Shown here: positions 5,563-31,598 of the stretch, one piece after another | Numbering within the stretch: the stretch's first letter is position 1 | How the letters are laid out: every line of letters starts with the position of its first letter | NCBI GenBank assembly: GCA_041477755.1 | Contig: JBGOUW010000001.1 | Location: forward strand, 1 to 32,979 | DNA from: Candidatus Binatia bacterium | GTDB lineage: Bacteria > Desulfobacterota > Binatia > HRBIN30 > JACQVA1 | Reading direction: 5' to 3' | DNA length: 32,979 nt | The notes under the pieces: model-generated | The model's input: only the letters and a program-made list of their open reading frames with translations | Databases searched by the model: none | What the model was told of the DNA's origin: nothing | Position numbers and translations under genes: made by a program

Positions 5563-7521
5563 TTATGGCTTCGATTCGTGCAACACGGTCTCCGCACGAA
5601 TCTTCCACCGGTCGCCGTCGCGTTGCCATTGCAACACTTTGAAGGCGTGCGACGTCGAGAGCGGGGACTGATACGACTGGTTGAAGCTCACGATGGCCGT
5701 CGTGTCGCGCGTGTCCGGCGTATTTGGCGCGTTTGGATAGACCGCCACGGTCGAACCGGCAATCTGTACGGCGATTGTCCCGCTCTGTTCGAACAACAAC
5801 GCCTTGCGGGCGCGCCACTGAGCAACGCTTCCTCCGGATTCCGGTACGAACGATGCGCTGTAGAATCCGACGTATTCATCGAGCCGGCGCTGCTCCCAGG
5901 CCTGACGCCAGCCCTCCAGCGCCTCTCGTAGTGTGTCAACATCTCGAAGAGTGGTCGGGGACGGGGCTTGGCCGACGCCGAGCCAGGCAGTTTGCCACGG
6001 CGTAATTCTGCTCGATAGGGCATCGAAGTCCGACTGCCTGAGTTGCGCGAGGTCAGGACCGAGGCCGTGTCGCTCCGGAACGATCTTGAGCCGTTTCTTC
6101 CCGGTTTCATCGACGAGACGAATACGCTCGGTTGTAGTGTCGCTGGCTACCAGCCAGCGCGGCCAGGACGATGTCTGCGCGGCGATGATCGGATAACATC
6201 CTTCTTCTACGATCTTGTCAGTGGCACGGCGATAGAGGCACACTCGCTTGTGCTCGGGTTCGACGATCGCCGTAGTTGTCCATTCTGTTCCGAGCGTGGC
6301 GATCCATCTAGACGACTCGCCAGGCGACCCGACGGCAGGCGGCACAATGGCCGGGGCCGCAACGCTCTGCTCGGTTACGGGTGGGGGCTCGGAGGGGACT
6401 GCTGGAGCCGCGGCGCTGGCAGCATCCAGGTGATCGGCACTTGGTTCGACAATCGCGGTGGGTGGCACCGGTGCTTGGGCGACAACCGCTTCGTCGGGTC
6501 GCGCTTCATTGAGCTGCGATGGGAGACGGCCAGGCTGGACCGCGCCGTCGTGCGCCGGAGCAGCGAGCGGTGCTGTAACTTCCGCTCCGCGCGGGCGCGG
6601 CTGGTCGTCGACTACACTCGAACGCGGGATCGAGGGCCGCGGTGCGTCTTGTCGCTGAACGACGGCAAGCACGGCGAACACACCAAGCGCGCCAAGTCCG
6701 GCGCCGAGAACCAGTGACTGAGTCCGCCCGTTTCGCTGCGCGGGCGAGGTCGGCTGGTTTCGCGACGCAGCTTCCGTCTGGCGTCGGAGACTACTCAGCT
6801 CGGCCTCGAGGGTGGCGAGGCGGCCATCACGTTGAGAGGACGGATCGTCGGGGACCGCCTTGACGCGATCGAGTTCGGCTTCGAGCCGCTCGTGGTGATC
6901 CGAGTACCACTCGATTGCTCCAAGCAACGCCTGCAGGTGTTCGGCCATTGTTGACCGAGATGGATGCGAACTTCCGTGCTGGTCGGGGTGCGGCATCGCG
7001 CTCTCGGCACTAGTGTGGGCCTCTGCGGCGTTCGCGGTCATGGCATCGATGCGTTCGGCAATGGTTTCAACGCGCCGCACGCCCTCCTGGAACGCGCCCA
7101 TGAGCGTGTCTTGATCGGCGACAACACAGGCGAGCAGCTCGTCGGTCTTGCTCCCGTTGTCCGAGAGGTTGCTCAGGACGCCCTCGATTCGTTGTAGCGC
7201 ATCCTCGGCGCGCGCCAACGCCTGGTCGGCCGTTGCGCGCGCCTCGGCGGTCGCATGGGTTTGGGCGTCCTGGAGCTGCGCGATCGAGTCGCGGATCTCG
7301 CTGATTGCCGGCGAAGCGATAGCCGCGCTGGCATCGACGCACGGTTGATTGTCGACCCGGGCAGCGAGCGAGTGGAGTCGGCGCTCGCAGGCTTGCACGG
7401 TGGCAATGAGCATGTCGCGGTCAGCGGTGAAGCGCGCCAACAGCCCGGCGAGAATCTTGCGCTGCGACTCCAATGTATCCCGTCCGCTCGTGGCCGATGC
7501 GCGAAGGTCGCCGTTTGGCAT
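5563..7521 (-). CDS. Bitopic membrane protein (652 aa): cytoplasmic coiled-coil region, one TM helix, Pro-rich linker, C-terminal NTF2/SnoaL-like (Cds6-type) domain
   Basis: The start is trimmed to the ATG at 7521, 41 nt after the upstream regulator's stop. The N-terminal third is heptad-like and contains an internal duplication ([25 protein letters not shown] versus [25 protein letters not shown]). The TM segment is [20 protein letters not shown]. The C-terminus ([25 protein letters not shown]...WKIRAE) resembles the NTF2-like domain of Cds6-family proteins. Confidence 0.6.
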
Positions 7522-7562: not shown

Positions 7563-8450
7563 TCAGTACGGCGGCTCCTGAGTGTGCCCGGCGGTGGCGG
7601 TCGCTCCAAAGGCACCGTCGATGAGCCGGCGAACCCGCGCGATGAAATCTTCGCGTTTGAACGGCTTGACTACATAGTCGCTGGCACCGGCCCTGCGGGC
7701 GCGATCGACGCTTTCCGGGGTCCCGTTTGCACTCAAGATCAGAACCGGCACACGCTTCGTGTGGCGGGCGCGACGCAAGCGCTGACACATGTCGTAGCCA
7801 TCGAGGCCTGGCATCGATAGGTCGAGGATGACCACGTCAGGGCGCTCGAGTTCCGTGAGCGTGAGTGCTTCGTCGGCGTCCTGGGCGGTGATGACCGTCA
7901 AGCCGAGGCCGGACCGCTCGATTGTTGCCCGAACGATCCGGCGCAAGTCGGGGTCATCGTCCACGACGAGGGCTCGGAAGCTCCGCGCCGCAGTCGGCGT
8001 CGCGAGAGAGCCACGGCCGGTGGTGGCAGGCTTCGGTTGAGAGGTCGGTTGCGGCGCGGGCTCAGCCGACGGTTGGACGGTCTGTTCGTTTGCTCCACGC
8101 GGTATCTGAGGCGTCGCGCCTTCGGCGAGCCGGGCTAGGCCGTCGTCGATCAGCATCTCGATTGCGACACGAGCCGCCGTCTCCGACAATTGACTCTGCG
8201 GACGCGAGATCGATTGCCGAAAGCGGTGCACGAGCGGCAATTGGAGCGCGTCGCCCAATAGGATGGCAAGGTTCCTCTGCGTGATCAGCCCTTCTTGCTC
8301 CAGCAGATGCTCGACCGGTTGATCGTTGGCGCTCGCCGACTGCGCGAGACGTGCGGCATCGCGGGAGCTGAGTCGCCCCACTTGTTGAAGAAACCGGAGC
8401 AACGTCTGGGTTCGATCGCGGGTGTTAGGTGAGGTCTGCATCCAGGTCAC
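7563..8450 (-). CDS. Response regulator: GspE/MshE-N-terminal-like (T2SSE_N-like) domain + CheY-like receiver (295 aa)
   Basis: The C-terminal REC has all key residues: LVVDDDPD, VILDLSMPGLDG, ILSAN, VVKPF. The N-terminus has two helical repeats of the LLxxxGLITxxxL type (VEHLLEQEGLITQRNLAILLGDALQLPLV), as in T2SSE_N domains. The start is either the GTG at 8450 or the ATG at 8441. Confidence 0.7.
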   Translation of the reverse strand: MTWMQTSPNTRDRTQTLLRFLQQVGRLSSRDAARLAQSASANDQPVEHLLEQEGLITQRNLAILLGDALQLPLVHRFRQSISRPQSQLSETAARVAIEMLIDDGLARLAEGATPQIPRGANEQTVQPSAEPAPQPTSQPKPATTGRGSLATPTAARSFRALVVDDDPDLRRIVRATIERSGLGLTVITAQDADEALTLTELERPDVVILDLSMPGLDGYDMCQRLRRARHTKRVPVLILSANGTPESVDRARRAGASDYVVKPFKREDFIARVRRLIDGAFGATATAGHTQEPPY

Positions 8451-16821: not shown

Positions 16822-17543
16822 TGAGCTACATGGTGTTCGACATCGAGACGCGGATCGATAAGGGGCTGGTACGCAGTATTTATCTTCCCGGCGAAGCCGT
16901 GAGCGACGACGAGGCCTTCATCCGGGTTCGACAACAGTTACTCGCCGAGCACCAGAGCGACTTCTTTCCCGTATCGTTTCACCTGCCGATTGTGATCGTC
17001 TTGGCTGCGATACGCGACGACTTGAGTTGGGAGGGTGTGCAGATTCTCAGCAGTGCCGACGGCTCAGGTCGCGATATCGCGCGGGACTTCTGGTCGCGAG
17101 TGGAAAGTTTCAGCGGTACGTTGGTGACCTTCAACGGTCGCGGCTTCGATTTGCCGGTCATGGAACTACAGGCGCTGCGCCATGGGGTGGCGGCACCACG
17201 CTACTTCAACGATCGCCACGGGCCGCGCGCCCGCTACTCTGATAAGCACTATGACCTCCACGAGTTCATCACCAATTTCGGCATGTATCGGGTGCGCGGC
17301 GGCTTGGATCTGTTGACCAAGCTGGTCGGACTGCCTGGCAAGACGTCTGTGGCGGGTGGGGATGTGCAGAAGCTGTGGGAAGCCGGCGAACTGGCGGCGA
17401 TTGAGCGGTACTGCCAGGCCGACGTGATCCAGACGTACTTGTTGCTGCTGCGGGTCGAGCAATTGCGGGGACGGATTAGCGTGGCTCGGCTCGACGAGCT
17501 GTGGCAGGCGGCCGCGCCCTTGCGTGCACTCTTAGTCGGCTGA
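16821..17543 (+). CDS. RNase H-like 3'-5' exonuclease related to the PolB exonuclease domain (240 aa)
   Basis: Exo I VFDIET, Exo II FNGRGFDLPV and Exo III YCQADVIQTY. The overall pattern matches the 'predicted 3'-5' exonuclease related to PolB exonuclease domain' family. The ATG at 16821 overlaps the upstream TGA (ATGA-type coupling). Confidence 0.7.
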   Translation: MSYMVFDIETRIDKGLVRSIYLPGEAVSDDEAFIRVRQQLLAEHQSDFFPVSFHLPIVIVLAAIRDDLSWEGVQILSSADGSGRDIARDFWSRVESFSGTLVTFNGRGFDLPVMELQALRHGVAAPRYFNDRHGPRARYSDKHYDLHEFITNFGMYRVRGGLDLLTKLVGLPGKTSVAGGDVQKLWEAGELAAIERYCQADVIQTYLLLLRVEQLRGRISVARLDELWQAAAPLRALLVG

Positions 17544-17942
17544 GGCCTGCGAGTTGGCGGTGGTGCGCGCGATGACTTGCTTGAGTTGATCGACGTCAAC
17601 CGGCAGGGATAGGCAGTTCACTCGGACCGTCTGCTCGATCACCGCTCGCAGTCGCGTGGTTTCGCATTCGGTCAGGAAAATAATCGGCAACTCCGGGCGC
17701 AAGCGTCGCACCCGGTCGAACACGGTAAGGCCGCAAATGGTGCCGGCCAGCACCACCTCGGAGATGACGGCATCATAGGACTTGGATTCGAAGAGGCGGA
17801 GGGCCGCTTCGCCAGAATCCGCCCCGTCGACCTGATACCCGCAGCGGCCGAGAATGCGCTCGAGGGTCCGCCTAAAGTTCGGATTGCACGCGACTAAGAG
17901 AAGCCGCTTCTTGTTTCCGCTACACTCACACTCGGCTGACAT
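17532..17942 (-). CDS. Degenerate (pseudo-)receiver domain protein, Cys-rich (136 aa)
   Basis: The fold is CheY-like by alignment, but the acidic pair reads VACN, the acceptor position reads AVISEVVL (Glu instead of Asp), and the KP position reads SLP. There are seven Cys, including an N-terminal CxC. Confidence 0.7.
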   Translation of the reverse strand: MSAECECSGNKKRLLLVACNPNFRRTLERILGRCGYQVDGADSGEAALRLFESKSYDAVISEVVLAGTICGLTVFDRVRRLRPELPIIFLTECETTRLRAVIEQTVRVNCLSLPVDVDQLKQVIARTTANSQASAD

Positions 17943-17971
17943 CCGGACGCACCCCGCGGGGAGACTGGTTC

Positions 17972-17987
17972 AGCAGGATCAATGCCA
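17972..17987 (-). promoter_or_regulatory. Candidate sigma54 -24/-12 promoter (TGGCATTgatcCTGCT) for the pseudo-receiver gene
   Basis: The minus strand reads TGGCATTGATCCTGCT with GG-N10-GC spacing. It lies in the 147-nt gap after the NtrC-family gene, 29 nt upstream of the ATG at 17942. It shares the CTGCT -12 box with the promoter at 21205. Confidence 0.55.
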
Positions 17988-18060
17988 CGCGCGCCGGAAG
18001 GCGGAGTGGAGCGTAGCGCCAAGTAGAAATGGCGAACGGTCACGATCTGCCCGTCCACGT

Positions 18061-18070
18061 GTGTTGAAAC
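18061..18070 (-). promoter_or_regulatory. Candidate upstream activator element GTTTCAACAC
   Basis: The minus strand reads GTTTCAACAC, immediately followed by ACGTGG (CACGTG palindrome at 18056-18061). It ends 73 nt upstream of the TGG of the 17987 promoter. Its orientation and distance match the related elements at 21109 and 24614. Confidence 0.4.
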
Positions 18071-18089
18071 GCGACGAGGGCGGCGTGGG

Positions 18090-19445
18090 CTACGCGAGAC
18101 CATACTTCCCGAGCTTGCGGTAGAGGCGCTGGCGATCGATGTGGAGCAGACGCGCCGCTTGATTTTTGTTTCCGCCGCTCTTGCGTAGCGCGGCGAGGAT
18201 GTTGAGCCGTTCGAGGTCCTCGAACGGGATCGGTTCTGCCAGCCCTTCGATGGCGGGCGTGCCGTTACCGGCCGTGAACAGCGCGGGCGGCAGATCACGT
18301 TCGGTGATTTCCGGGGCGGGCGATAGCGCAAAGGCGCGCTCGATCACGTTCTGTAACTCGCGAATATTGCCCGGCCAGCGATAGTCGAGCAGGCGTTGCG
18401 TCGCCTCCGGTGTCACCCGCTTCGGCTCGACGCCATAGGCACGGCTGAATTCGGCGATGAAGTGGGTGATCAGCGGCCCGATGTCATCCCGGCGTTCGCG
18501 CAGCGGCGGCAGATGAATCGGCACGACATTGAGACGATAGTAGAGGTCGCTGCGGAAGCTGCCTTCGGCCATCGCCATCTCGAGATTGCGGTTGGTGGCC
18601 GCGATGATCCGAACGTCCACGCGCACCGCCTTGGTCGAGCCGAGGGGCGTGACCTCCTTTTCCTGGATCGCACGCAAGAACTTCACTTGCAGCGGCAGCG
18701 GGATCTCCGCGATCTCATCGAGGAACAGCGTGCCGCCATCAGCCGCTACGAACACGCCGTCGTGATCCTCGACGGCCCCGGTGAACGCGCCTTTGCGGTG
18801 ACCGAACAGCTGGCTCTCGAGCAGGGTCTCGGCAAGCGCGCCGCAGTTGACGGCTAAGAACGGCTGCGAAGCGAGTGAGCTCTTGGCGTGGATCGTGCGC
18901 GCGACCAACTCCTTGCCGGTCCCGTTTTCGCCGAAGAGCAGCACATTGCTCTTGTTGCGACTGACCGCGTCGATGGTCGCGTAGATGTCCTGCATCGGGC
19001 GGCTCTTGCCGACGATCTCGCCGAAGCGGTCGTACTTGCGCAGTTGCTGCTTGAGCTGCGTGACCTCGCGTCGCAACTGTCGAGTTTCGAGCTGGCGCTC
19101 GACGACCATGAGCAGCTCGTCAGGATGACACGGCTTGATGAGGTAGTCGGCGGCCCCAAGCTTCATGGCATCGACGGCCGATTGAATCGTGCCATGGCCC
19201 GTCAGCACGATGGTGGTAGGCGTCAGGTTACGCTCGTGCATCATGCGCAGCAGCGTCATGCCGTCCATCACCGGCATGTTGAGGTCGGTGATGACGATGT
19301 CGGCGGGCTGTTCGCTGAGCCGCTGCAGTGCCAGCTCGCCATTGGCGGCGGTATCGACCGAGTAACCCTTGCGTTCGAGGATCTTGGCCAACGTGCGGAC
19401 CATGTTGGCCTCGTCCTCGACGAGGAGAATGCGTGGGTTCGGCAT
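18090..19445 (-). CDS. Sigma54-dependent response regulator, NtrC family (REC-AAA+-Fis-type HTH, 451 aa)
   Basis: REC motifs: LLVEDE, IVITDLNMPVMDG, KP. AAA+ Walker A GENGTGKE. The sigma54-contact loop GAFTGA is present (ESQLFGHRKGAFTGA). C-terminal HTH GNKNQAARLLHIDRQRLYRKL. The ATG lies 2 nt after the kinase stop. Confidence 0.92.
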   Translation of the reverse strand: MPNPRILLVEDEANMVRTLAKILERKGYSVDTAANGELALQRLSEQPADIVITDLNMPVMDGMTLLRMMHERNLTPTTIVLTGHGTIQSAVDAMKLGAADYLIKPCHPDELLMVVERQLETRQLRREVTQLKQQLRKYDRFGEIVGKSRPMQDIYATIDAVSRNKSNVLLFGENGTGKELVARTIHAKSSLASQPFLAVNCGALAETLLESQLFGHRKGAFTGAVEDHDGVFVAADGGTLFLDEIAEIPLPLQVKFLRAIQEKEVTPLGSTKAVRVDVRIIAATNRNLEMAMAEGSFRSDLYYRLNVVPIHLPPLRERRDDIGPLITHFIAEFSRAYGVEPKRVTPEATQRLLDYRWPGNIRELQNVIERAFALSPAPEITERDLPPALFTAGNGTPAIEGLAEPIPFEDLERLNILAALRKSGGNKNQAARLLHIDRQRLYRKLGKYGLA

Positions 19446-19447
19446 AC

Positions 19448-21082
19448 TCAGTGAACGGGAGACGCAGCGGGCGCGGCCGTGTGCAGGTGTGCGTCGATCG
19501 CCTCGGACTCAGTGCCGCACTGGCAGGGCAGCTCGATCATGAAAGTCGAGCCTTCATTCGGCTTGCTACGCACGGTGATCTCGCCTTGATAGCGCTGCAC
19601 CACCGAGTGCACGACCGACAAGCCGAGCCCGGTGCCTTGTCCAGGTGCTTTGGTGGTGAAGAACGGATTGAAAATGTCCTTGAGGCTATCCTCCGGAATG
19701 CCCACGCCGGTGTCGCTGAATTCGATCTGCACGCGTCCGTTGGGTAGCGAGGCGGTGCGCAGGCGCAGCTCGCCACCGTGCGGCATCGCTTGCACGGCGT
19801 TGGTGATCAGGTTGAGGAAGATCTGCCGCAGCGCGTTCTGATTGGCCAAGCAGGGCGCCGACAGGCCGAGGTCGGTGGTGACGCGGACGTCGGCGTTCTG
19901 CAGGCTCTTGTGAATGAGTTGCAGCGTCTTGCGGAGGAGGTCGTTGATGTCGACCGGCTCCAACTCGGCCCGCGACTCGCGTGAGAATTCGAGCAGGTTG
20001 TTGATGATCTCATGCACGCGGCCCATCTCGTCCTTGGCGATCTTGAGGTCTTCCTGAATCTCCGGATTGCTGCGGTCAACGAGCTCACTGAGATCGTAGA
20101 GCGCGTTCAAAATGATGCCGAGTGGGTTGCGAATCTCGTGGGCGATGCCGGCGGCGAGCTGGCCGATCGCCGCCATCTTCTCCGACTGGATCAACTGGCT
20201 CTCCAGGCGCTTGCGATCGGAAATATCGACACAGATGAGTTGAAAGTAGCGTTGATGGCCGTACTCGATGAGCCCCGCGTTGAAAAACACCGGCACCATC
20301 TCCCCTCGGCGAGTCTGCAGGTGGAGATCTTCGCGTTCGGAATGCCCGCGCACCTTGGTCTCTTCCAACAGCCGCTGCGCGCGTGGTCGTTCGGTGGGCG
20401 GTAGCAGGTCCCACAGACGCATGCCGGCCATCTCATCGCGACGGTAGCCCATGAGCTTCTCGGCGACGATGTTGGCGTCGAGCACAGTGCCAATGTCGTA
20501 ATCGAGTTTGAACATGACGGCGGGGGAGTTGTCGATGCGGTTACGGTAACTGGCTTCTTGTTCGCGCAACTCTTCTTCTCGTCCCTCGACGAAGAAGTCG
20601 GTGATATGCAGCAGCCGCTCCTGGAACTCTTGCTGCAGCAGAGCCGAGAGCGCGTCGAGCTTTTCGGGCTGATCGGCGTATCGCTCACGCAGGCGGTCGG
20701 CGAGCATATGGCGCAACTTCATCTGGCCGCTGAGGAAACGGGAGGCAGAGAATTGAGAAATGAATCCGCGGCGCGCATGGCTTCGCAGGTAGACGTAGGT
20801 GTCGATGTCTTCGGGGCTGACGATGTGTGTGATCCAGCGCCCGAGCGCGTCACTCATGCCTTGGTGAATCCCGGGCCATTCCCATTCGGGAATGTTGAAC
20901 GCAGTTCCGATCAGTTCCACCCAGGTGTCGAGAACGCTCGGACCGACCGTGCGGATGAAGTTCGCGAGTTCTTCGCGCAGCGGACTGTGTTCGCGCGGAT
21001 ACGTGAGCAGGTGGCAGCCACGCATGTAGCCTTCGATGCGCCGCAAGTGGGCTTCGAGCGAAGAATCGTAGACCGGCTCCAT
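19448..21082 (-). CDS. Cytoplasmic sensor histidine kinase: unassigned N-terminal helical domain - PAS - HisKA - HATPase (544 aa)
   Basis: H-box [14 protein letters not shown]-box [12 protein letters not shown]1 DTGVGI, G2 GTGLGLS. The PAS segment is [10 protein letters not shown]...ICVDISDRK. No hydrophobic TM stretch is visible. The start is trimmed to the ATG at 21082, which GAAGGAG precedes. Confidence 0.9.
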
Positions 21083-21108
21083 CGCAGCTCCTTCGGTGCT
21101 AGTGCGGT

Positions 21109-21118
21109 GTTTCAGCAC
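21109..21118 (+). promoter_or_regulatory. Candidate upstream activator element GTTTCAGCAC
   Basis: It lies in the divergent intergenic region between the kinase operon and the 65-aa ORF and ends 86 nt upstream of TGGCAC at 21205. It forms the right arm of GTGCT-N13-AGCAC (21096-21118). CACGT(G) motifs follow at 21122-21126 and 21165-21170. Confidence 0.4.
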
Positions 21119-21204
21119 TCCCACGTCTCGGAATCTATTACCAACTTGTCCGGGGTCTCGCTACCACGTGCGCGGCGGAGGTGCGTAACGACGTCCGCAC
21201 TCTG

Positions 21205-21220
21205 TGGCACGTTGACTGCT
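21205..21220 (+). promoter_or_regulatory. Sigma54 -24/-12 promoter (TGGCACGttgaCTGCT)
   Basis: TGGCACGTTGACTGCT matches 11 of 12 specified positions of the TGGCACG-N4-TTGCW consensus. It is intergenic and lies 45 nt upstream of the ATG at 21266, which has an AGGAGG Shine-Dalgarno. Confidence 0.7.
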
Positions 21221-21265
21221 CTTTCCGTGTCGCAGCGTGGGCAGATGTTCATTAGGAGGCGCGTC

Positions 21266-21463
21266 ATGATCGCAACCGGACTCGGAACACTCACGTGGGC
21301 GAAGCCGCTCACCGAACTCGTTTTCGGATACGGAGACGCCAGCACGGTCGGAATGGTGCTGGGCTTCGGTCTCTTGGTGTCGCTGCTGGGGTTGATTCTG
21401 AACAGTGAGCGAACGGCACCCAGGCCGGAGTTGGTCACCACGCGGCCTGCGTTGCAGCACTGA
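21266..21463 (+). CDS. Small single-pass membrane protein (65 aa), hypothetical
   Basis: AGGAGG (21254-21259) lies 6 nt before the ATG at 21266. The sequence is MIATGLGTLTWAKPLTELVFGYGDASTVGMVLGFGLLVSLLGLILNSERTAPRPELVTTRPALQH, with one clear TM helix. I counted 50 of 65 codons ending in G/C, similar to the neighbouring genes. In the ORF track it is hidden as the tail of the 301-aa ORF 20558-21463, which otherwise runs antisense to the kinase gene. Confidence 0.55.
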   Translation: MIATGLGTLTWAKPLTELVFGYGDASTVGMVLGFGLLVSLLGLILNSERTAPRPELVTTRPALQH

Positions 21464-21477
21464 GCGTCTGAGAGTGC

Positions 21478-21500
21478 GGCGGGGGCAAGCGGCCCCCGCC
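21478..21500. terminator. GC-rich hairpin between convergent genes (putative bidirectional terminator)
   Basis: GGCGGGGGC (21478-21486) pairs with GCCCCCGCC (21492-21500), leaving a 5-nt loop. It lies 15 nt after the small-ORF stop and 8 nt after the cupredoxin stop. There is no U-tract. Confidence 0.45.
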
Positions 21501-21508
21501 CGCGCTCA

Positions 21509-21871
21509 CTATGGTAACACGACGAGCTGACCGCCAACGTGCGCGGGGTGGAGCTGGCAAGTGATCGGGAAGATGCCTTCCTTGTCGGCAGTGAACTCGA
21601 CGGTTTTCGGTTCGCCGCGGGTGATGACTTCTTCGACATTGACGGCCGCGATCTTGAACCCGTGTTGATTAGGGTCGGCCTTCACGTTGTTGATCAGTTT
21701 CAGTTTCACCTTGTCGCCCTTGTGCACGACCAAGGTTGAGGGCAGCCACAACTTGGAACCCTCGTACTCGATGTTGACGACGGTGAATTCTTGCACCTCC
21801 GCACGCACAGTGCCAACCGCCGCCATCGTTGAAGCGGCGGCAATTGCCGCAACCGCGATCCACTTCCGCAT
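21509..21871 (-). CDS. Secreted cupredoxin-domain protein (120 aa)
   Basis: Signal peptide MRKWIAVAAIAAASTMAAVGTVRA. The cupredoxin pattern is VVHKGDKVKLKLINN...NQHGF...FTADKEGIFPITCQLHPAH. GGGAGG precedes the ATG. Confidence 0.75.
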   Translation of the reverse strand: MRKWIAVAAIAAASTMAAVGTVRAEVQEFTVVNIEYEGSKLWLPSTLVVHKGDKVKLKLINNVKADPNQHGFKIAAVNVEEVITRGEPKTVEFTADKEGIFPITCQLHPAHVGGQLVVLP

Positions 21872-21963
21872 AAGTCACCTCCCTGACGCCTAAGTAAGAT
21901 GGATCGCATCTCGCCACAAGCGGCGGATGAATTCAATCGGGCAGCTCTGCTATAGACGATCCC

Positions 21964-24021
21964 GTGGCACACGAGGGTACCTTTCGCCTGGTGGCGGACT
22001 TCACCCCGCAAGGCGATCAGCCGCAGGCAATCACCCAGCTCATCGACGGCTTGGCGCAGGGCCTGCGCAGCCAAGTGCTGCTGGGCGTCACTGGCTCCGG
22101 CAAAACATTTACGATGGCGAACGTCATCGCGCGCCTGAACAAGCCGACGCTGGTGATCGCTCCGAACAAGACCTTGGCGGCGCAGCTCTACAGCGAGTTC
22201 AGGGGGCTGTTTCCCGAAAACGCCGTGCGCTACTTCGTGAGCTACTACGACTACTACCAGCCCGAAGCGTACGTGCCGAGCACCGACACGTACATTGAGA
22301 AGGATTCCTCGATCAACGACGACATCGATAAGATGCGCCACTCCGCCACCAAGGCGTTGCTGGAACGCAACGATGCCCTGATTGTAGCCAGCGTCTCCTG
22401 CATCTACGGCTTGGGCTCGCCGGAAGCGTACTTCGAGATGTTGATCTTCCTCGAGCGCGGCAGCGGCGTCGACCGCGACGCGCTGCTGCGTAAGCTGGTC
22501 GACATTCAGTACCAGCGCAACGACTACGACTTCCACCGCGGAACGTTCCGCGTGCGGGGCGACGTGATCGAGGTGTTTCCGGCGTACGAAGAGGCGCGTG
22601 CCATCCGCATCGAACTGTTCGGCGACACCATCGACGCACTCGCCGAAATAGACCCGCTGCGCGGTCAGGTGCTGCGGCGATTGGATAAGGTTGCGATCTA
22701 TCCCGCCAGCCACTACGTGACGGCTCCGGAGCGAATGGAGAAAGCCGTCGCAGCTATTCGCGCCGAATTGAAGGCGCGCATCGCGGAGTTCCGCGCCGAG
22801 AACAAGCTGCTGGAAGCTCAGCGACTCGAGCAGCGCACGCTCTACGACCTTGAACTGCTCGCCGAGATGGGCTTCTGCCCGGGCATCGAGAACTACTCAC
22901 GGCACTTGACCGGTCGCCAGCCGGGCGAGCCACCCCCGACGCTGATCAACTACTTCCCGGAGGACTGGCTGCTCATTGTCGACGAGAGTCACGTCACCGT
23001 TCCGCAGATCGGCGGCATGTATCGTGGCGATCGCGCGCGCAAGGGAACCTTGGTCGATTTCGGCTTCCGCTTGCCCTCCGCGCTTGACAACCGACCGCTG
23101 AATTTCCAGGAGTTCGACGCGCTGATCCGCCAGATCGTCTACGTTTCCGCAACGCCGGGAAACTACGAACTCGAGCAGGCCCGCGGCGTGGTGGTCGAGC
23201 AGGTTATCCGGCCCACCGGGTTGACGGATCCGCAGCTCAGCGTGCGACCGGCGCGCAACCAGGTTGACGATCTCCTGGAGGCGATCCGCGAGCGCATCGC
23301 TCGCAACGAACGCGTGCTGGTCACAACGTTGACCAAGAAGATGGCCGAAGACCTCACTGACTACTTTCAGGAACTCGGCTTGCGGGTGCGCTATCTGCAT
23401 TCCGACATCGAGACCATCGAGCGCGTCGACATCATCCGCGACCTGCGCAAAGGGGTCTGCGATGTGCTGGTCGGCATCAACTTGCTGCGTGAGGGGCTCG
23501 ACCTGCCGGAGGTCTCGTTAGTAGCGATCCTCGACGCCGACAAGGAAGGATTTCTCCGCTCGGAGCGTTCATTGATTCAAACCATTGGCCGTGCGGCGCG
23601 CAACGTCAATGGCACCGTGATCTTGTATGCGGATCACGTGACCGATTCGATGCGTCGGGCGATCGACGAAACAGATCGAAGGCGGGCCAAGCAAGCAGCG
23701 TATAACCAGGAACACGGCATCACCCCGTTAACCATCCAAAAGGCGATTGATCCCCGGCTAGTCGAAAGTGCCGAGGCGGACTATGTCGATGTCCCGATTG
23801 TCGCCGAGGCCGATGCGGAGTACTTGTCGCTCAAGGAAATTTCCAAGCGCATCGCCGCGCTCGAAAAACAGATGCGCCAAGCTGCCGGTGACCTGGAATT
23901 CGAACGCGCGGCGGAGCTGCGCGATCAGATTCAGCGCCTGCGCGAGCGCGAGTTGGAGGCCCGCGAAGTGCGCGCCGCTAGCTCAGGCGGCGTTGCGGAC
24001 GACGTAGATCCCACCGTCTGA
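21964..24021 (+). CDS. uvrB: Excinuclease ABC subunit B (685 aa)
   Basis: [17 protein letters not shown], Walker A GVTGSGKT, the DESH box, and the C-terminal UVR motif ([16 protein letters not shown]). GTG start at 21964. Confidence 0.95.
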
Positions 24022-24447
24022 GAGATCGCCGAGCACACGCAACAGTTCGGGCACCTGAATCGGCTTCTCGAGGAAAGCGAGGGCGCCGTGCTTGTAACTG
24101 CGCAAGCGGTCGATGGTCGAGTCGCTTGAAGTCAGGACCACGATCGGCACTTCACTGAGTCGGCGATCGTTGTAGATCGCATCCAGCAGCCCGCGTCCGC
24201 CGATGCCTGGGAGATTGAGGTCGAGCAACACGAAGCTGAACGCGGCCGGGTTGTGCGGGTCGGAGTATTGCTGTCGCTGCAGCAACACTAGCGCTTGATC
24301 GGCGGTCGGCACCGTGACCAGCTGGTTGAGAATGCGGGCACGCCGCAGGGCGCGTAACGTCAGGTCGGCATCGTCCGGGTCGTCCTCAACAAGGAGGATA
24401 GGACCGCTGCTCATGGGTGGGGGTTGTTGGCCCTTGTGCGTTGCCAT
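23983..24447 (-). CDS. Single-domain CheY-like response regulator (154 aa)
   Basis: The receiver residues are canonical: [35 protein letters not shown] lies 7 nt before the ATG at 24447; the ATG at 24414 is an alternative start. The 3' end overlaps the uvrB 3' end by 39 nt. Confidence 0.85.
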
Positions 24448-24504
24448 GACTAAGCTCCATCAGTCTAAGCGAGCGAAATTGCGCGCGTCACAGGAAGTGT
24501 GCTC

Positions 24505-24520
24505 TGCGAGTTGCGTACCA
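24505..24520 (-). promoter_or_regulatory. Candidate sigma54 -24/-12 promoter (TGGTACGcaacTCGCA) for the orphan receiver
   Basis: The minus strand reads TGGTACGCAACTCGCA with GG-N10-GC spacing and 10 of 12 consensus positions. It lies 57 nt upstream of the ATG at 24447. Confidence 0.45.
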
Positions 24521-24604
24521 TCTCGCGAGCGAAGCGCCTGGCCGTGTTGTCGGCCGTGTCACGGTCCATGTGCGCCTACACGCGCGACGCTGCGAGCGCG
24601 CTCA

Positions 24605-24614
24605 GCGCTGAAAC
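24605..24614 (-). promoter_or_regulatory. Candidate upstream activator element GTTTCAGCGC
   Basis: The minus strand reads GTTTCAGCGCT and ends 84 nt upstream of the TGG at 24520. It matches the element at 21109-21118 at 9 of 10 positions (10 of 11 counting the flanking T). It is embedded in the AGCGCT/AGCGCGCT palindromes. Confidence 0.4.
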
Positions 24615-24705
24615 GTCACTCGGGTGACGGCGGCGCGGAGCATCCGCGCCTTTCCCTGCGACGGTCGCGGGTATAGTCTTCGGTGCGGCGGGTGAGGACC
24701 ATCTG

Positions 24706-26643
24706 GTGAGCAACGCGGTTGAGCAAACAGCCAGTGGCGAAGAAGAAGCGGCGGCGCCGGGGGACGTGATCCAGCACGGGTGCGAGGAAAAGCTGACAGC
24801 GTTGCCAGGTCAGCCGGGCGTCTATCTGCTCAAGGACAAGCACGCCAAGGTCATCTACGTCGGTAAGGCCAAGAACCTCCGCAATCGCGTACGCAGCTAC
24901 TTTCGCGGGGGCGACGAGCGGGTGCAGGTCCGGTTTCTGGTGCAGCGTGTGACCGACTTCGAAACCCTGGTCACCAGCAACGACAAGGAAGCCCTGATCC
25001 TCGAGAACAATCTCATCAAGCAGTACAAGCCGCGCTACAATATCCGACTCAAGGACGACAAGTCGTATGTCAGCGTGAAGGTAACCGTTCAGCAGGACTG
25101 GCCGCGGATTGTAGTCACCCGCAAGATCGTCAAGGACGGCAGCCGCTACTTCGGTCCGTTCTCGTCGGCCTCCGGTGTGCGCGAGACGCTCGATACCATT
25201 CGCAAGGTGATCCCGTTGCGTACCTGCAGCGATGGCGTATTCCGCAACCGATCGCGGCCATGCTTGGAGTATCAAATCAAGCGCTGCCTAGCCCCGTGCT
25301 GTCTCCCAGTGGATGCAGAGACCTATCAACGTCACTTGCGCGAAGCGATGCTGCTGCTCGAAGGCAAGAACCAGCAGTTGGTTCGGCAACTCCGGGATGA
25401 CATGAGCGCGGCGGCGACCGATCTGCGCTTCGAGGACGCAGCCCGCTTGCGCGATCAAATCCGCACGATTGAGAAGACGCAGGAGCCGCAGCAGGTCTTG
25501 TCGCACTGGGGCGGTGATCAGGACATCTTCGGTCTCTATCGCGAGGGCGGCTTCATTGAGGCGCAGGTGCTGTTCATCCGCAGTGGCAAGCTGACCGGCA
25601 ATCAGGCCTACCATATCGAGGACTACGAGTTCTCCACGGAAGAAGTACTCGAAGATTTGTTGACGCAGTTCTACCAAGGGGATCGCTACCTTCCGGATGA
25701 GATCCTGTTGCCGGTGGCGATCGAGGATGCCGATACGCGCGCGGAATATCTCAGCGAGCGGCGGGGGCGGCGGGTCGAGGTCTTGTGGCCGCAGCGCGGC
25801 GACAAGGTGCGTCTGGTCGCGATGGCGACGGAGAACGCGCGGCAGGGCTTCCGCGCGCGCCAGGATGGCGACTACCAGCGCGAGCGGATGCTCGACGAGT
25901 TGCGGACTAAGCTGCACCTGCGCAACGCCCCCAAGCGCATCGAGTGCTTCGATATTTCGAATATACAAGGCACGCTGGCGGTGGGATCGATGGTGACCTT
26001 CGATGAAGGCGAGCCCGACAAGAATCGCTATCGCCGCTTTCGTATTCGCACGGTGGAAGGGGCGGACGACTTTCGTATGATGTATGAGGTGCTCACGCGC
26101 CGCTATCGCCGCGCCAAGGAGACGGGGGACTTCCCAGATTTGCTCGTCGTCGACGGTGGGATCGGGCAACTCAACGTCGCGCTCGAAGTGCTCCGCGAGC
26201 TGGAGATCACGGAAGTCGACGCGGCTGGGTTGGCAAAAATGCGGGTCGAGCGCGACGCCCGCGCGCCGCAGATCGAGCGCAGCGAGGAGCGGGTGTTCCT
26301 GCCCGGGCGGAAGAACCCGGTGGTGTTGCGGCGCAATTCGAGCGCGCTGTTCTTGCTCCAGCGCGTGCGAGACGAAGCCCATCGCTTCGCCATCACCTAT
26401 CACCGCGCGCTGCGCCGCAAGGAACGACTGCGGTCGTTGCTCGATGGCATCCCCGGGATTGGTGCGACCCGGCGCAAACGATTGCTGCGCCATTTCGGCA
26501 GCGTGCGTCGCATGCGCGACGCGACGGTGGCACAACAGACCGAAGTGTCGGGCATCTCCACAGCATTGGCCGAAACCATCGAGCGGGCGCTGGCGGAACC
26601 GAATGTGGCCGCAACACCCCCGCAATCAGGAAACGAGAACTAG
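24706..26643 (+). CDS. uvrC: Excinuclease ABC subunit C (645 aa)
   Basis: GIY-YIG domain (PGVYLLKDKHAKVIYVGKAKNLRNRVRSYF), a UVR motif (LRFEDAARLRDQI) and a C-terminal (HhH)2 region. The GTG at 24706 is preceded by GGTGAGGA. Confidence 0.95.
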   Translation: MSNAVEQTASGEEEAAAPGDVIQHGCEEKLTALPGQPGVYLLKDKHAKVIYVGKAKNLRNRVRSYFRGGDERVQVRFLVQRVTDFETLVTSNDKEALILENNLIKQYKPRYNIRLKDDKSYVSVKVTVQQDWPRIVVTRKIVKDGSRYFGPFSSASGVRETLDTIRKVIPLRTCSDGVFRNRSRPCLEYQIKRCLAPCCLPVDAETYQRHLREAMLLLEGKNQQLVRQLRDDMSAAATDLRFEDAARLRDQIRTIEKTQEPQQVLSHWGGDQDIFGLYREGGFIEAQVLFIRSGKLTGNQAYHIEDYEFSTEEVLEDLLTQFYQGDRYLPDEILLPVAIEDADTRAEYLSERRGRRVEVLWPQRGDKVRLVAMATENARQGFRARQDGDYQRERMLDELRTKLHLRNAPKRIECFDISNIQGTLAVGSMVTFDEGEPDKNRYRRFRIRTVEGADDFRMMYEVLTRRYRRAKETGDFPDLLVVDGGIGQLNVALEVLRELEITEVDAAGLAKMRVERDARAPQIERSEERVFLPGRKNPVVLRRNSSALFLLQRVRDEAHRFAITYHRALRRKERLRSLLDGIPGIGATRRKRLLRHFGSVRRMRDATVAQQTEVSGISTALAETIERALAEPNVAATPPQSGNEN

Positions 26644-30440: not shown

Positions 30441-31598
30441 ATGACATCTTCAGCGGCGTCCCAAAGTGGCCCGATGGCCAGTCCGACCAAACTCACGCAG
30501 TTTCCGCCTGAGTATTTTGAGCGATTGATTGAATCGTCACCCGATATCGTGGTGGCCACCGATCGGTCGGGTATCGTAATGTTCTACAACGACGGGGCCG
30601 AGAAGAACCTCGGGTACACCGCCAGCGAGATTCTCGGGCAGAATGTGCTGCGCCTGTATCCGTCGTACGAGGAAGCGCATCGCGTGATGATGGCCATGCG
30701 CAGCGGCGAGCACGGCGGGCCGGGTAAAGTGAAGAACTTCGAAACCATCTTCGTGAACCGCTGGGGCGAACACCTCCCCGTGGCGATTTCCGGCTCCATC
30801 TTGTGTAACGAGGACGGGATCGAAATTGGCTCGATCGGGTTTGCCAAAGACTTGCGTGAGATCCGCCGCAAGGATCGCCTCGCCACCCTCGGAGAGGTGA
30901 CGGTGGCGCTGTGTCACGAGATCAATAGCCCGCTCGAAGTGATTCTCAACCAGGCGCAGTTGCTCCGGCGCTTCGTTCGTGAAGTGGCGAACGACGAACA
31001 GGCGGTGGTTGAAGAAGAGCGGCTCGAAGCGATTCGCCGCGAGATCGACCAGATCCAGATCGTGATCAATCGGCTCGTCGAGATGGCCGGCGGCGGCGAG
31101 TACGACACGCGGGAGTACCTGGACGGAAAACAGATGACCGACTTGGGGGCCAAACCCGCACCGGTGAGTGCCCAGCCCCTCGCCGGCTTGCGTATTCTCG
31201 TTGTCGACGATGATCTCGGCGTGTGTCGCTCGTTGCGGGATCTACTCGCCGCAGAAGGTTGCAACGTGCTCACGGCCAACAACGGCCTCGAGGCTCTCAG
31301 TGTAATGGAACGGGCGCCGGTCGATCTTGTCGTCACCGATGTGGTGATGCCCGACCTCGACGGCTACGATCTGTTCATGGAGGTCAAACGGCGCGGGCAG
31401 ACCCCGGTGATACTGATGACGGGCTACTACTACGATCGCGACCACGTGATTAAGCGGAGCCGCCTCGAAGGGTTGGAGAGCGTTTTGTTCAAGAAGCCGG
31501 TCGATCCCGAGCGCCTCAAGGCGGCGATTCTGGAGCGCTGTCGTCCGCAGCAAGTGGTCGCGCAGTCCGTCCCCGCGAAACCCGCTGAGAAGCCGTAG
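30441..31598 (+). CDS. PAS - HisKA(DHp) - receiver protein lacking a catalytic ATP-binding domain (385 aa)
   Basis: PAS (SSPDIVVATDRSGIVMFYNDGAEKNLGY...). H-box LATLGEVTVALCHEINSPL with a second DHp helix (IRREIDQIQIVINRLVEM). After a linker of about 30 aa comes a canonical REC (ILVVDDD, LVVTDVVMPDLDG, LMTGY, FKKP). No N/G1/F/G2 boxes are present anywhere. It starts 18 nt after the FrhB-like stop. Confidence 0.8.
   Translation: MTSSAASQSGPMASPTKLTQFPPEYFERLIESSPDIVVATDRSGIVMFYNDGAEKNLGYTASEILGQNVLRLYPSYEEAHRVMMAMRSGEHGGPGKVKNFETIFVNRWGEHLPVAISGSILCNEDGIEIGSIGFAKDLREIRRKDRLATLGEVTVALCHEINSPLEVILNQAQLLRRFVREVANDEQAVVEEERLEAIRREIDQIQIVINRLVEMAGGGEYDTREYLDGKQMTDLGAKPAPVSAQPLAGLRILVVDDDLGVCRSLRDLLAAEGCNVLTANNGLEALSVMERAPVDLVVTDVVMPDLDGYDLFMEVKRRGQTPVILMTGYYYDRDHVIKRSRLEGLESVLFKKPVDPERLKAAILERCRPQQVVAQSVPAKPAEKP

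Follow-up and report, generated by a model that had tools for sequence, protein, structure and literature searches.

The window analysed here is an entire contig of 32,979 nt from an uncultured Candidatus Binatia bacterium, which its relatives likewise place in Candidatus Binatia. It encodes a PAS sensor histidine kinase and, immediately 3' of it, an NtrC-family activator, that is, an enhancer-binding protein (EBP). Three predicted sigma-54 promoters are present at this locus: P1 points away from the kinase gene toward an open reading frame (ORF) for a small membrane protein of 65 aa, P2 faces the gene of the receiver-like protein REC1 just 3' of the activator gene, and P4 faces the gene of the single-domain receiver REC2 (Table 1). 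These promoters, the conserved sites upstream of them and their possible control by the kinase/activator pair are the subject of this study. Gene calls rest on Pfam, NCBIfam and PDB searches. Scans based on the kinase yielded ~90 orthologous loci with kinase identities of 50–83%, and tblastn mapping revealed conserved synteny; orthologous or related loci are designated below by L-numbers.

The kinase is cytoplasmic. Its N-terminal domain of ~175 aa, in which no Pfam family was found at E-values up to 1, is followed by PAS, HisKA and HATPase_c domains (Pfam). The kinase ATG at 21082 is preceded closely by GGAG, and only 2 nt separate the kinase stop codon from the start of the activator gene. 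In the activator, Pfam identified PF00072 (1.6e-30), PF00158 (1.7e-68) and PF02954 (5.4e-11); the receiver retains the acceptor Asp within ...VITDLNMP..., and the translation contains GENGTGKE and an intact GAFTGA loop (HRKGAFTGA). A PDB search returned an NtrC-family chain, 4l4u (2e-104). The best NCBIfam matches were AtoC, NtrC and ZraR, with AtoC on top at 429 bits versus a cut-off of 714, and no equivalog cut-off was reached among AtoC, NtrC, ZraR, GlrR and NtrX. Judged by its sequence, the protein belongs to the NtrC-family EBPs: it combines an AAA+ domain carrying GAFTGA with HTH_8 and a receiver of the phosphorylatable type, and its kinase is encoded in the same operon. It is also the sole Sigma54_activat protein among the main contig ORFs tested, in agreement with the original prediction, which had named it the only EBP here and had noted its intact GAFTGA loop.

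P1, P2 and P4 are the top three matches to a sigma-54 matrix among the 65,930 positions of the whole window, P1 being the best. All three are intergenic, each points at a start codon, and the GG-N10-GC spacing is kept, with the GC dinucleotides at 17974/17973 in P2 and at 21218/21219 in P1. The original prediction had described them as correctly oriented promoters preceded by a shared decamer, and direct reading of 17000–25500 reproduced every string, coordinate and spacing that it gave for promoters and decamers. The count alone is modest: three matches of at least 13.5 bits were observed versus 0.8 expected (p ~0.04). From the window by itself, the three-promoter observation is real and moderately significant only. 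Related DNA totalling 555 kb contains no more than about a dozen further matches that reach 13 bits. Because the three matches are conserved in orthologous loci, we regard P1, P2 and P4 as genuine conserved promoters and not as chance matches; the sigma-54 consensus for Binatia is TGGCAYG-N4-CTGCT. Scans of 17300–24800 for sigma-70 promoters and terminators showed no excess over shuffled sequence.

Table 1. Genes, promoters and upstream elements of the kinase/activator locus, in window coordinates
Feature	Position	Strand	Basis or remark
PAS sensor histidine kinase	19448-21082	-	Pfam; full-length orthologs of 50-83% identity in Binatia loci
NtrC-family activator (EBP), receiver-AAA+-HTH_8 with GAFTGA	18090-19445	-	Pfam, NCBIfam, PDB
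REC1, 136-aa receiver-like protein	17532-17942	-	Pfam Response_reg; alignment of 14 homologs
ORF of 65-aa small membrane protein	21266-21463	+	65-67-aa orthologs 3' of P1
Cupredoxin	21509-21871	-	
uvrB	21964-24021	+	
REC2, canonical 154-aa single-domain receiver	23983-24447	-	Pfam; orthologs of 53-99% identity
uvrC	24706-26643	+	
P1 sigma-54 promoter TGGCACGTTGACTGCT	21205-21220	+	matrix 16.4 bits; 45 nt before small-ORF ATG at 21266
P2 sigma-54 promoter TGGCATTGATCCTGCT	17987-17972	-	matrix 14.5 bits; 29 nt before REC1 ATG at 17942
P4 sigma-54 promoter TGGTACGCAACTCGCA	24520-24505	-	matrix 13.8 bits; 57 nt before REC2 ATG at 24447
Decamer upstream of P1	21109-21118	+	ends 86 nt before TGG of P1
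Decamer upstream of P2	18070-18061	-	ends 73 nt before TGG of P2
Decamer upstream of P4	24614-24605	-	ends 84 nt before TGG of P4
P1 upstream island GCGGTGTTTCAGCAC	21104-21118	+	contains decamer 21109-21118; 27-36 nt from kinase ATG
P2 upstream candidate site GTCGCGTTTCAACACACGTGGAC	18053-18075	-	contains decamer 18070-18061
P4 upstream dyad CGTCACCCGAGTGACG (CGTCAC-N4-GTGACG)	24614-24629		adjoins decamer; shared base G 24614
Direct repeat ATTACCA-N16-GCTACCA	21137-21166		fixed distance from kinase start
GC-only hairpin	21472-21507		-33.3 kcal/mol, z = -4.7; between convergent small ORF and cupredoxin gene

Of the 60 distinct Binatia loci that include the activator 3' end, 31 have a sigma-54 match corresponding to P2 between the activator stop codon and the start of REC1, and P2 was confirmed in four more close relatives. 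Wherever P2 exists, REC1 is found 3' of the activator gene; the remaining loci of the 60 showed no sigma-54 match in this interval, and several P2-less loci also lack the downstream receiver (tblastn maps, L001–L031 only). Upstream of P2, the block GTYnCGTTTCRACACAYGTRGRA is kept in eight close lineages amid diverged flanks. The site spans 15–23 bp, with GTCRCG as its left part, and its 15-mer core in the window (18075–18061) has its centre ~106 nt before the predicted transcription start. Most close relatives carry a second site, TGTCsGsTTTTs, 22–23 bp further upstream (counted by eye), a spacing of approximately two helical turns that resembles classical tandem activator sites. This distal site is positionally homologous to TGTCAYGnTTTGCSAY, which is located just past the activator stop codon in distant relatives, and in such relatives the P2 site frequently forms a clean dyad, GTCRC-N5-GYGAC. 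Although the site cores differ between lineages, the recognition helix IDRQRLYRKL is identical in the sequences compared. Two other roles for the P2 block were considered and rejected: as a terminator or hairpin it would have a stem of 4 bp only, and pairing of the kinase mRNA 5' untranslated region (the P1-island complement) with the 3' untranslated region (the P2 block) showed no compensatory pattern across lineages and would leave P4 unexplained. In distant P2 orthologs (for example L005 13093–13108, L007, L009 and L013), the sigma-54 match ends only ~16 nt before the pseudo-receiver ATG, which would leave the REC1 mRNA of these relatives almost without a leader. These orthologs also contain another conserved block, CTTCCGAGnGCTTGGCG, ~25–45 nt upstream of the TGG.

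REC1 has a receiver fold (PF00072 at 1.2e-13 in Pfam) from which the phosphotransfer residues are missing. In an alignment of 14 homologs, the acceptor Asp is replaced by an invariant Glu62, the acidic pair is absent with (A/V)-x-N in its place, and the conserved Lys is likewise absent, with L-x-L-P there. These features class REC1 as a pseudo-receiver. Cys34, Cys70 and Cys110 are invariant throughout this alignment, in which Cys32 and a Cys near the N-terminus are also common; the invariant cysteines recall the Fe-S-binding receiver FixT. The first 63 residues of REC1 are 40% identical to the activator receiver, alpha-1 included, the helix that usually sets kinase specificity. REC1 would be the ancestral and most conserved target of the proposed regulon.

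P1 is present in all relatives with a kinase identity of at least 78% (L161, L001/L082, L083, L081, L165 and L166), and no P1-type match was found upstream of the kinase in relatives below 78%. The island upstream of P1 reads TGnnnyTGTTTCRnnACC in seven lineages, within flanking DNA that has diverged. Between this island and P1, the blocks ATTACCA and GCTACCA of the direct repeat hardly vary across seven lineages (fixed columns: TACCA and G,C,ACC; L166 has one substitution in each block), and related TACCA/AACCA repeats are kept in the P1-less loci L084, L086 and L002. The direct repeat resembles neither a sigma-70 nor a sigma-54 promoter, and it probably serves the kinase operon itself as a promoter or operator. 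Downstream of P1, the 65-aa ORF has a strong AGGAGG ribosome-binding site and a conserved C-terminus, TTRPALQH. Orthologs of 65–67 aa follow P1 in L161, L001, L083, L081, L165 and L166, and searches of Pfam (E up to 1) and NCBIfam assigned the ORF to no family. A separate 61-aa ORF (M.R.EL.IGD.VFTVYG..GEGWS...RPVP.G.RY.S..EIYFALANLS) is located between P1 and the 65-aa ORF in L083, L081 and L166; it is frameshifted in L165, absent from the window, L161 and L001, and matches no Pfam family at E up to 1. The GC-only hairpin beyond the 65-aa ORF is probably a bidirectional terminator without a T tract. All three target genes appear monocistronic, REC1 and REC2 because convergent genes come next, and the small ORF because this strong hairpin does.

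The original prediction rested on the decamer that the three promoters share. GTTTCARCRC occurs four times in the window versus 0.42 expected, a number reached by none of 100 shuffles; the fourth copy, at 7064, lies within a coding sequence. The bare hexamer GTTTCA is not enriched (16 copies versus 10.6 expected), and the earlier estimate of about a dozen GTTTCA/TGAAAC hexamers was too low. A 10-mer with at least eight invariant columns was common to three random 100-nt stretches of the window in 4.8% of trials, and in 0.5% when the offsets also had to agree within 15 nt. The decamer sits within conserved islands at P1 and P2, but at P4 it is found only in the window and in L161, a relative 97% identical to it. 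The P2 block extends further to the left (GTCRCG), which makes the decamer the right two-thirds of a longer site, and we take this longer site, as defined by its conservation, to be the functional unit.

We compared the sites through a matrix of the GTCRCGTTTCRACAC type, built solely from seven non-window P2 sites. In each of six lineages compared, no sequence within 120 nt upstream of P1 matches this matrix better than the P1 island does, with p values of 0.002–0.03 in five of them. With a second matrix, of non-window P2 plus P1 sites, 41 sigma-54-like matches in related loci were examined; site scores of at least 7 bits occur only at P1 and P2 orthologs and at P4 of the window and L161, with the exception of one weak site of at least 7 bits in L170 at a different position; the remaining matches have site scores of at most 5.6. 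In the window, the 15-mers start 88 nt (P2), 101 nt (P1) and 99 nt (P4) upstream of the TGG, which places the element within the range of ~80–150 bp upstream of -24 expected of an enhancer site, and it is conserved among orthologs for P1 and P2. Dyad symmetry is clear at P4 and in distant-relative P2 sites, but in the window the sites of P1 and P2 show it only weakly. When the distant-relative P2 sites alone served as the matrix, the P1 and P4 sites were poorly recovered. Interpretation of the decamer as an IHF site was rejected: it cannot be brought into register with YAA-N4-TTGATW, and at -105 to -120 it lies where an enhancer would.

Taken together, the sequence comparisons make it reasonably probable that the GTTTC-core site is what allows the kinase/activator pair to drive P1 and P2, with P4 being sigma-54 dependent under an activator that is uncertain. 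For P1 and P2, the earlier proposal that the pair drives three small signalling genes gains from the conserved, cross-matching islands beside the sole activator; for P4 it is less well supported, since a dyad is conserved there in place of the decamer. Several points weigh against the interpretation as a whole. The sigma-54 matrix is approximate, its frequencies following the compilation of Barrios et al. 1999, and the orthologous sites are mutually dependent, so that combined p-values are inflated. A search of the contig and of 2 Mb of retrieved loci detected no RpoN box, a result that is uninformative as to the presence of rpoN. The window has one P2 site only, versus two in relatives. The left half of the P2 site, GTCRC, is missing from the P1 island, whose distance to P1 varies (91–146 nt from the 15-mer 5' end, 84–139 nt from the decamer end). 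Finally, the P4 decamer is not conserved in the orthologs in L165, L166, L170 and L163.

P4 itself is, on comparative grounds, a genuine sigma-54 promoter: a P4-type match lies 61–73 nt before the REC2 orthologs of L161, L165, L166, L170 and the non-syntenic L163, the proteins of the last four being 53–65% identical to REC2. In database records, REC2 starts at the second ATG and comprises 143 aa. Assignment of P4 to the local activator is plausible, and the choice between this and another activator is finely balanced, the missing decamer in P4 orthologs having weakened the local assignment. The alternative, a strong contender that we place just short of probable, is that P4 responds to an activator encoded elsewhere through the dyad CGTCAC-N4-GTGACG, that the adjoining decamer is coincidental or neutral, and that the regulon has two members. 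The dyad is conserved in the window, L161, L166 and L170 (it is degenerate in L165), unlike the decamer positions, and the P2 matrix gave no significant match at the corresponding P4 position in L165, L166, L170 or L163, a nominal p of 0.03 being reached elsewhere in L170. Moreover, REC2 orthologs keep the sigma-54 promoter where no kinase/activator pair is nearby, namely in L163 and in L170, whose contig differs from that of L174 in the same metagenome-assembled genome, and in other genomes they stand beside other histidine kinases. On the other hand, the P4 15-mer of the window, GTGACGTTTCAGCGC, scores 10.1–10.4 bits with the non-window matrices (the seven P2 sites, or P2 plus P1 sites; p = 0.004), as against at most 5.6 at other sigma-54-like matches. 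Its orientation is the same as at P1 and P2, its promoter distance is similar, and the half-site GTCAC/GTGAC of the P4 dyad is also that of the distant-relative P2 dyad. In L168 (266–1479) and L169 (5001–8867), REC2 orthologs are followed by one or two histidine kinase genes, and no strong sigma-54 match was found before these two orthologs.

For P1, we consider it unlikely that the island acts in cis on the kinase/activator operon instead, as an operator or within the 5' untranslated region, that P1 is activated from other sites and that the likeness to P2 reflects autoregulation only. Such an explanation would account for the constant distance of the island to the kinase ATG (27–50 nt across lineages), as compared with ~55 nt of variation toward P1. 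It would also fit the position of the island downstream of TACCA repeats that persist even without P1, and the partly similar sequence at the island position of P1-less loci. However, enhancer sites tolerate variable distances, and the GTTTC core is present in every lineage with P1 (as ATTTC in L165) and altered in loci without it (CTGTCGGGACACC in L084, CTGTTCCTACGTC in L086). Furthermore, one bound site can do both jobs, as NtrC does at glnA/glnL. Because the distance is fixed to the kinase ATG and not to P1, the P1 island may serve the kinase operon in addition to P1, or instead of it. That the sigma-54-like strings and decamers are chance similarities in a GC-rich contig is extremely improbable: the weak count enrichment, the unenriched hexamer and the ~5% of random triples sharing a 10-mer when offsets are ignored would permit it, but it is contradicted by promoters and P1 and P2 islands kept across many lineages with diverged intergenic flanks, since this conservation spans loci at 50–83% kinase identity and not near-identical strains.

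Based on these findings, we propose a plausible mechanism for regulation by the kinase/activator pair. The PAS kinase would phosphorylate the adjoining NtrC-family activator, which would then bind the candidate GTTTC-core site ~105–120 bp upstream of P1 and P2 and activate transcription by DNA looping. P2 would drive the monocistronic, cysteine-rich Asp-to-Glu pseudo-receiver REC1, and P1 the 65-aa membrane protein. The P1 site is located between the presumed kinase promoter and the ribosome-binding site, and activator bound there may therefore also autoregulate the kinase/activator operon. In this lineage, P4 has a P2-like site, GTGACGTTTCAGCGC, fused to an older conserved dyad, and the promoter may have been drawn into the regulon of P1 and P2. 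By analogy with FixT and Osp, REC1 would most likely dock on the kinase and feed back on signalling, and our best guess is that it is a pathway-induced modulator of the kinase. It is doubtful, though conceivable, that in a large part of Binatia the pair's chief conserved output is, instead of a metabolic operon, a sigma-54-driven, cysteine-rich Asp-to-Glu pseudo-receiver derived from the activator receiver, which docks on the kinase or the activator receiver and closes a feedback loop that its invariant cysteines make redox- or metal-sensitive. If true, the pair and its pseudo-receiver would form a self-contained feedback module based on sigma-54, and no module of this type has yet been described for EBPs.

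Further signalling genes and sigma-54-like strings were noted in the window. The response-regulator gene 7563–8450 (minus strand) encodes ~150 N-terminal residues without a Pfam match plus a canonical receiver. Just before its start is the string TGGCGTAGGCTTTGCT (8480–8465, minus strand; 12.4 bits), which has no upstream site match, is probably not functional and was left out of the promoter count. Another string, TGGAACTCTTGCTGCA (20622–20637, plus strand; 13.2 bits), lies antisense within the kinase gene and recurs at the same place in L001, L083, L087 and L088, most simply because the kinase coding sequence is conserved. The gene 30441–31598 (plus strand) encodes a protein of 385 aa with PAS, HisKA and receiver domains, in which no HATPase_c was detected.

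The locus is reminiscent of NtrB/NtrC with glnAp2, AtoSC, ZraSR, DctBD and GlrKR, in which a kinase and a receiver–AAA+–HTH_8 activator with GAFTGA likewise go with -24/-12 promoters. Activator sites ~100–150 bp upstream, in NtrC-type systems often paired and dyad-like, would be a further feature in common, as would possible autoregulation via the operon control region. Unlike those systems, the present one has no named equivalog, its kinase carries an N-terminal domain without a family, and it would act on three small single genes instead of metabolic operons. No activator motif known to us resembles its site core, GTCRCGTTTC..., no motif database search having been made. In Desulfovibrio vulgaris, the neighbouring locus tags in Table 1 of a study of sigma-54 regulons (PMC4641369) indicate that activators beside their targets are the rule, and the promoters tabulated there include cases immediately 3' of the activator gene (DVU0653, DVU0679). 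Activator genes that adjoin target promoters are common to our locus and to the comparative-genomics regulons of D. vulgaris and Clostridiales (PMC6615313); the downstream promoters given there serve non-coding RNAs or operons for metabolism and transport, in contrast to the pseudo-receiver protein found here.

For REC1, the closest parallels are FixT and Osp. FixLJ induces FixT, which inhibits autophosphorylation of FixL and in Caulobacter has a functional 4-Cys Fe-S motif (PMC7078487); Osp, of the CckA-ChpT-CtrA system, is CtrA-induced and directly inhibits CckA (PMC9430884). Like these proteins, REC1 is small and receiver-like and would be under pathway control, its induction by the pathway being suggested by the promoter and site architecture; it also has invariant cysteines. 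It differs in having Glu at the acceptor position and in its control by sigma-54 and an EBP, theirs being a sigma-70-type promoter with FixK or CtrA; its feedback role is putative, and no orthology is claimed. Since FixT and Osp are single-domain receiver-like regulators that are induced by a two-component system and inhibit its kinase in negative feedback, the suggestion in the original prediction that a second-layer receiver circuit of this kind was not known to be described was too strong.

Overall, the proposed sigma-54 regulon is local and ordinary apart from one target, an unusual decoy receiver rich in cysteines, and it leaves the general picture of sigma-54 regulation unchanged. Of most interest is that a module combining kinase, activator, sigma-54 promoter and pseudo-receiver extends across the class. 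Our analysis yields a sigma-54 consensus for the class, a candidate activator-binding motif and a conserved three-gene module (kinase, activator and pseudo-receiver). As our literature search found no paper naming both Binatia and sigma-54, this is maybe the first concrete regulatory wiring proposed for this uncultured class. A recent review (PMC12632262) calls the mode of action of bacterial pseudo-receivers unresolved, and the module described here is a tractable candidate for studying how such proteins act.

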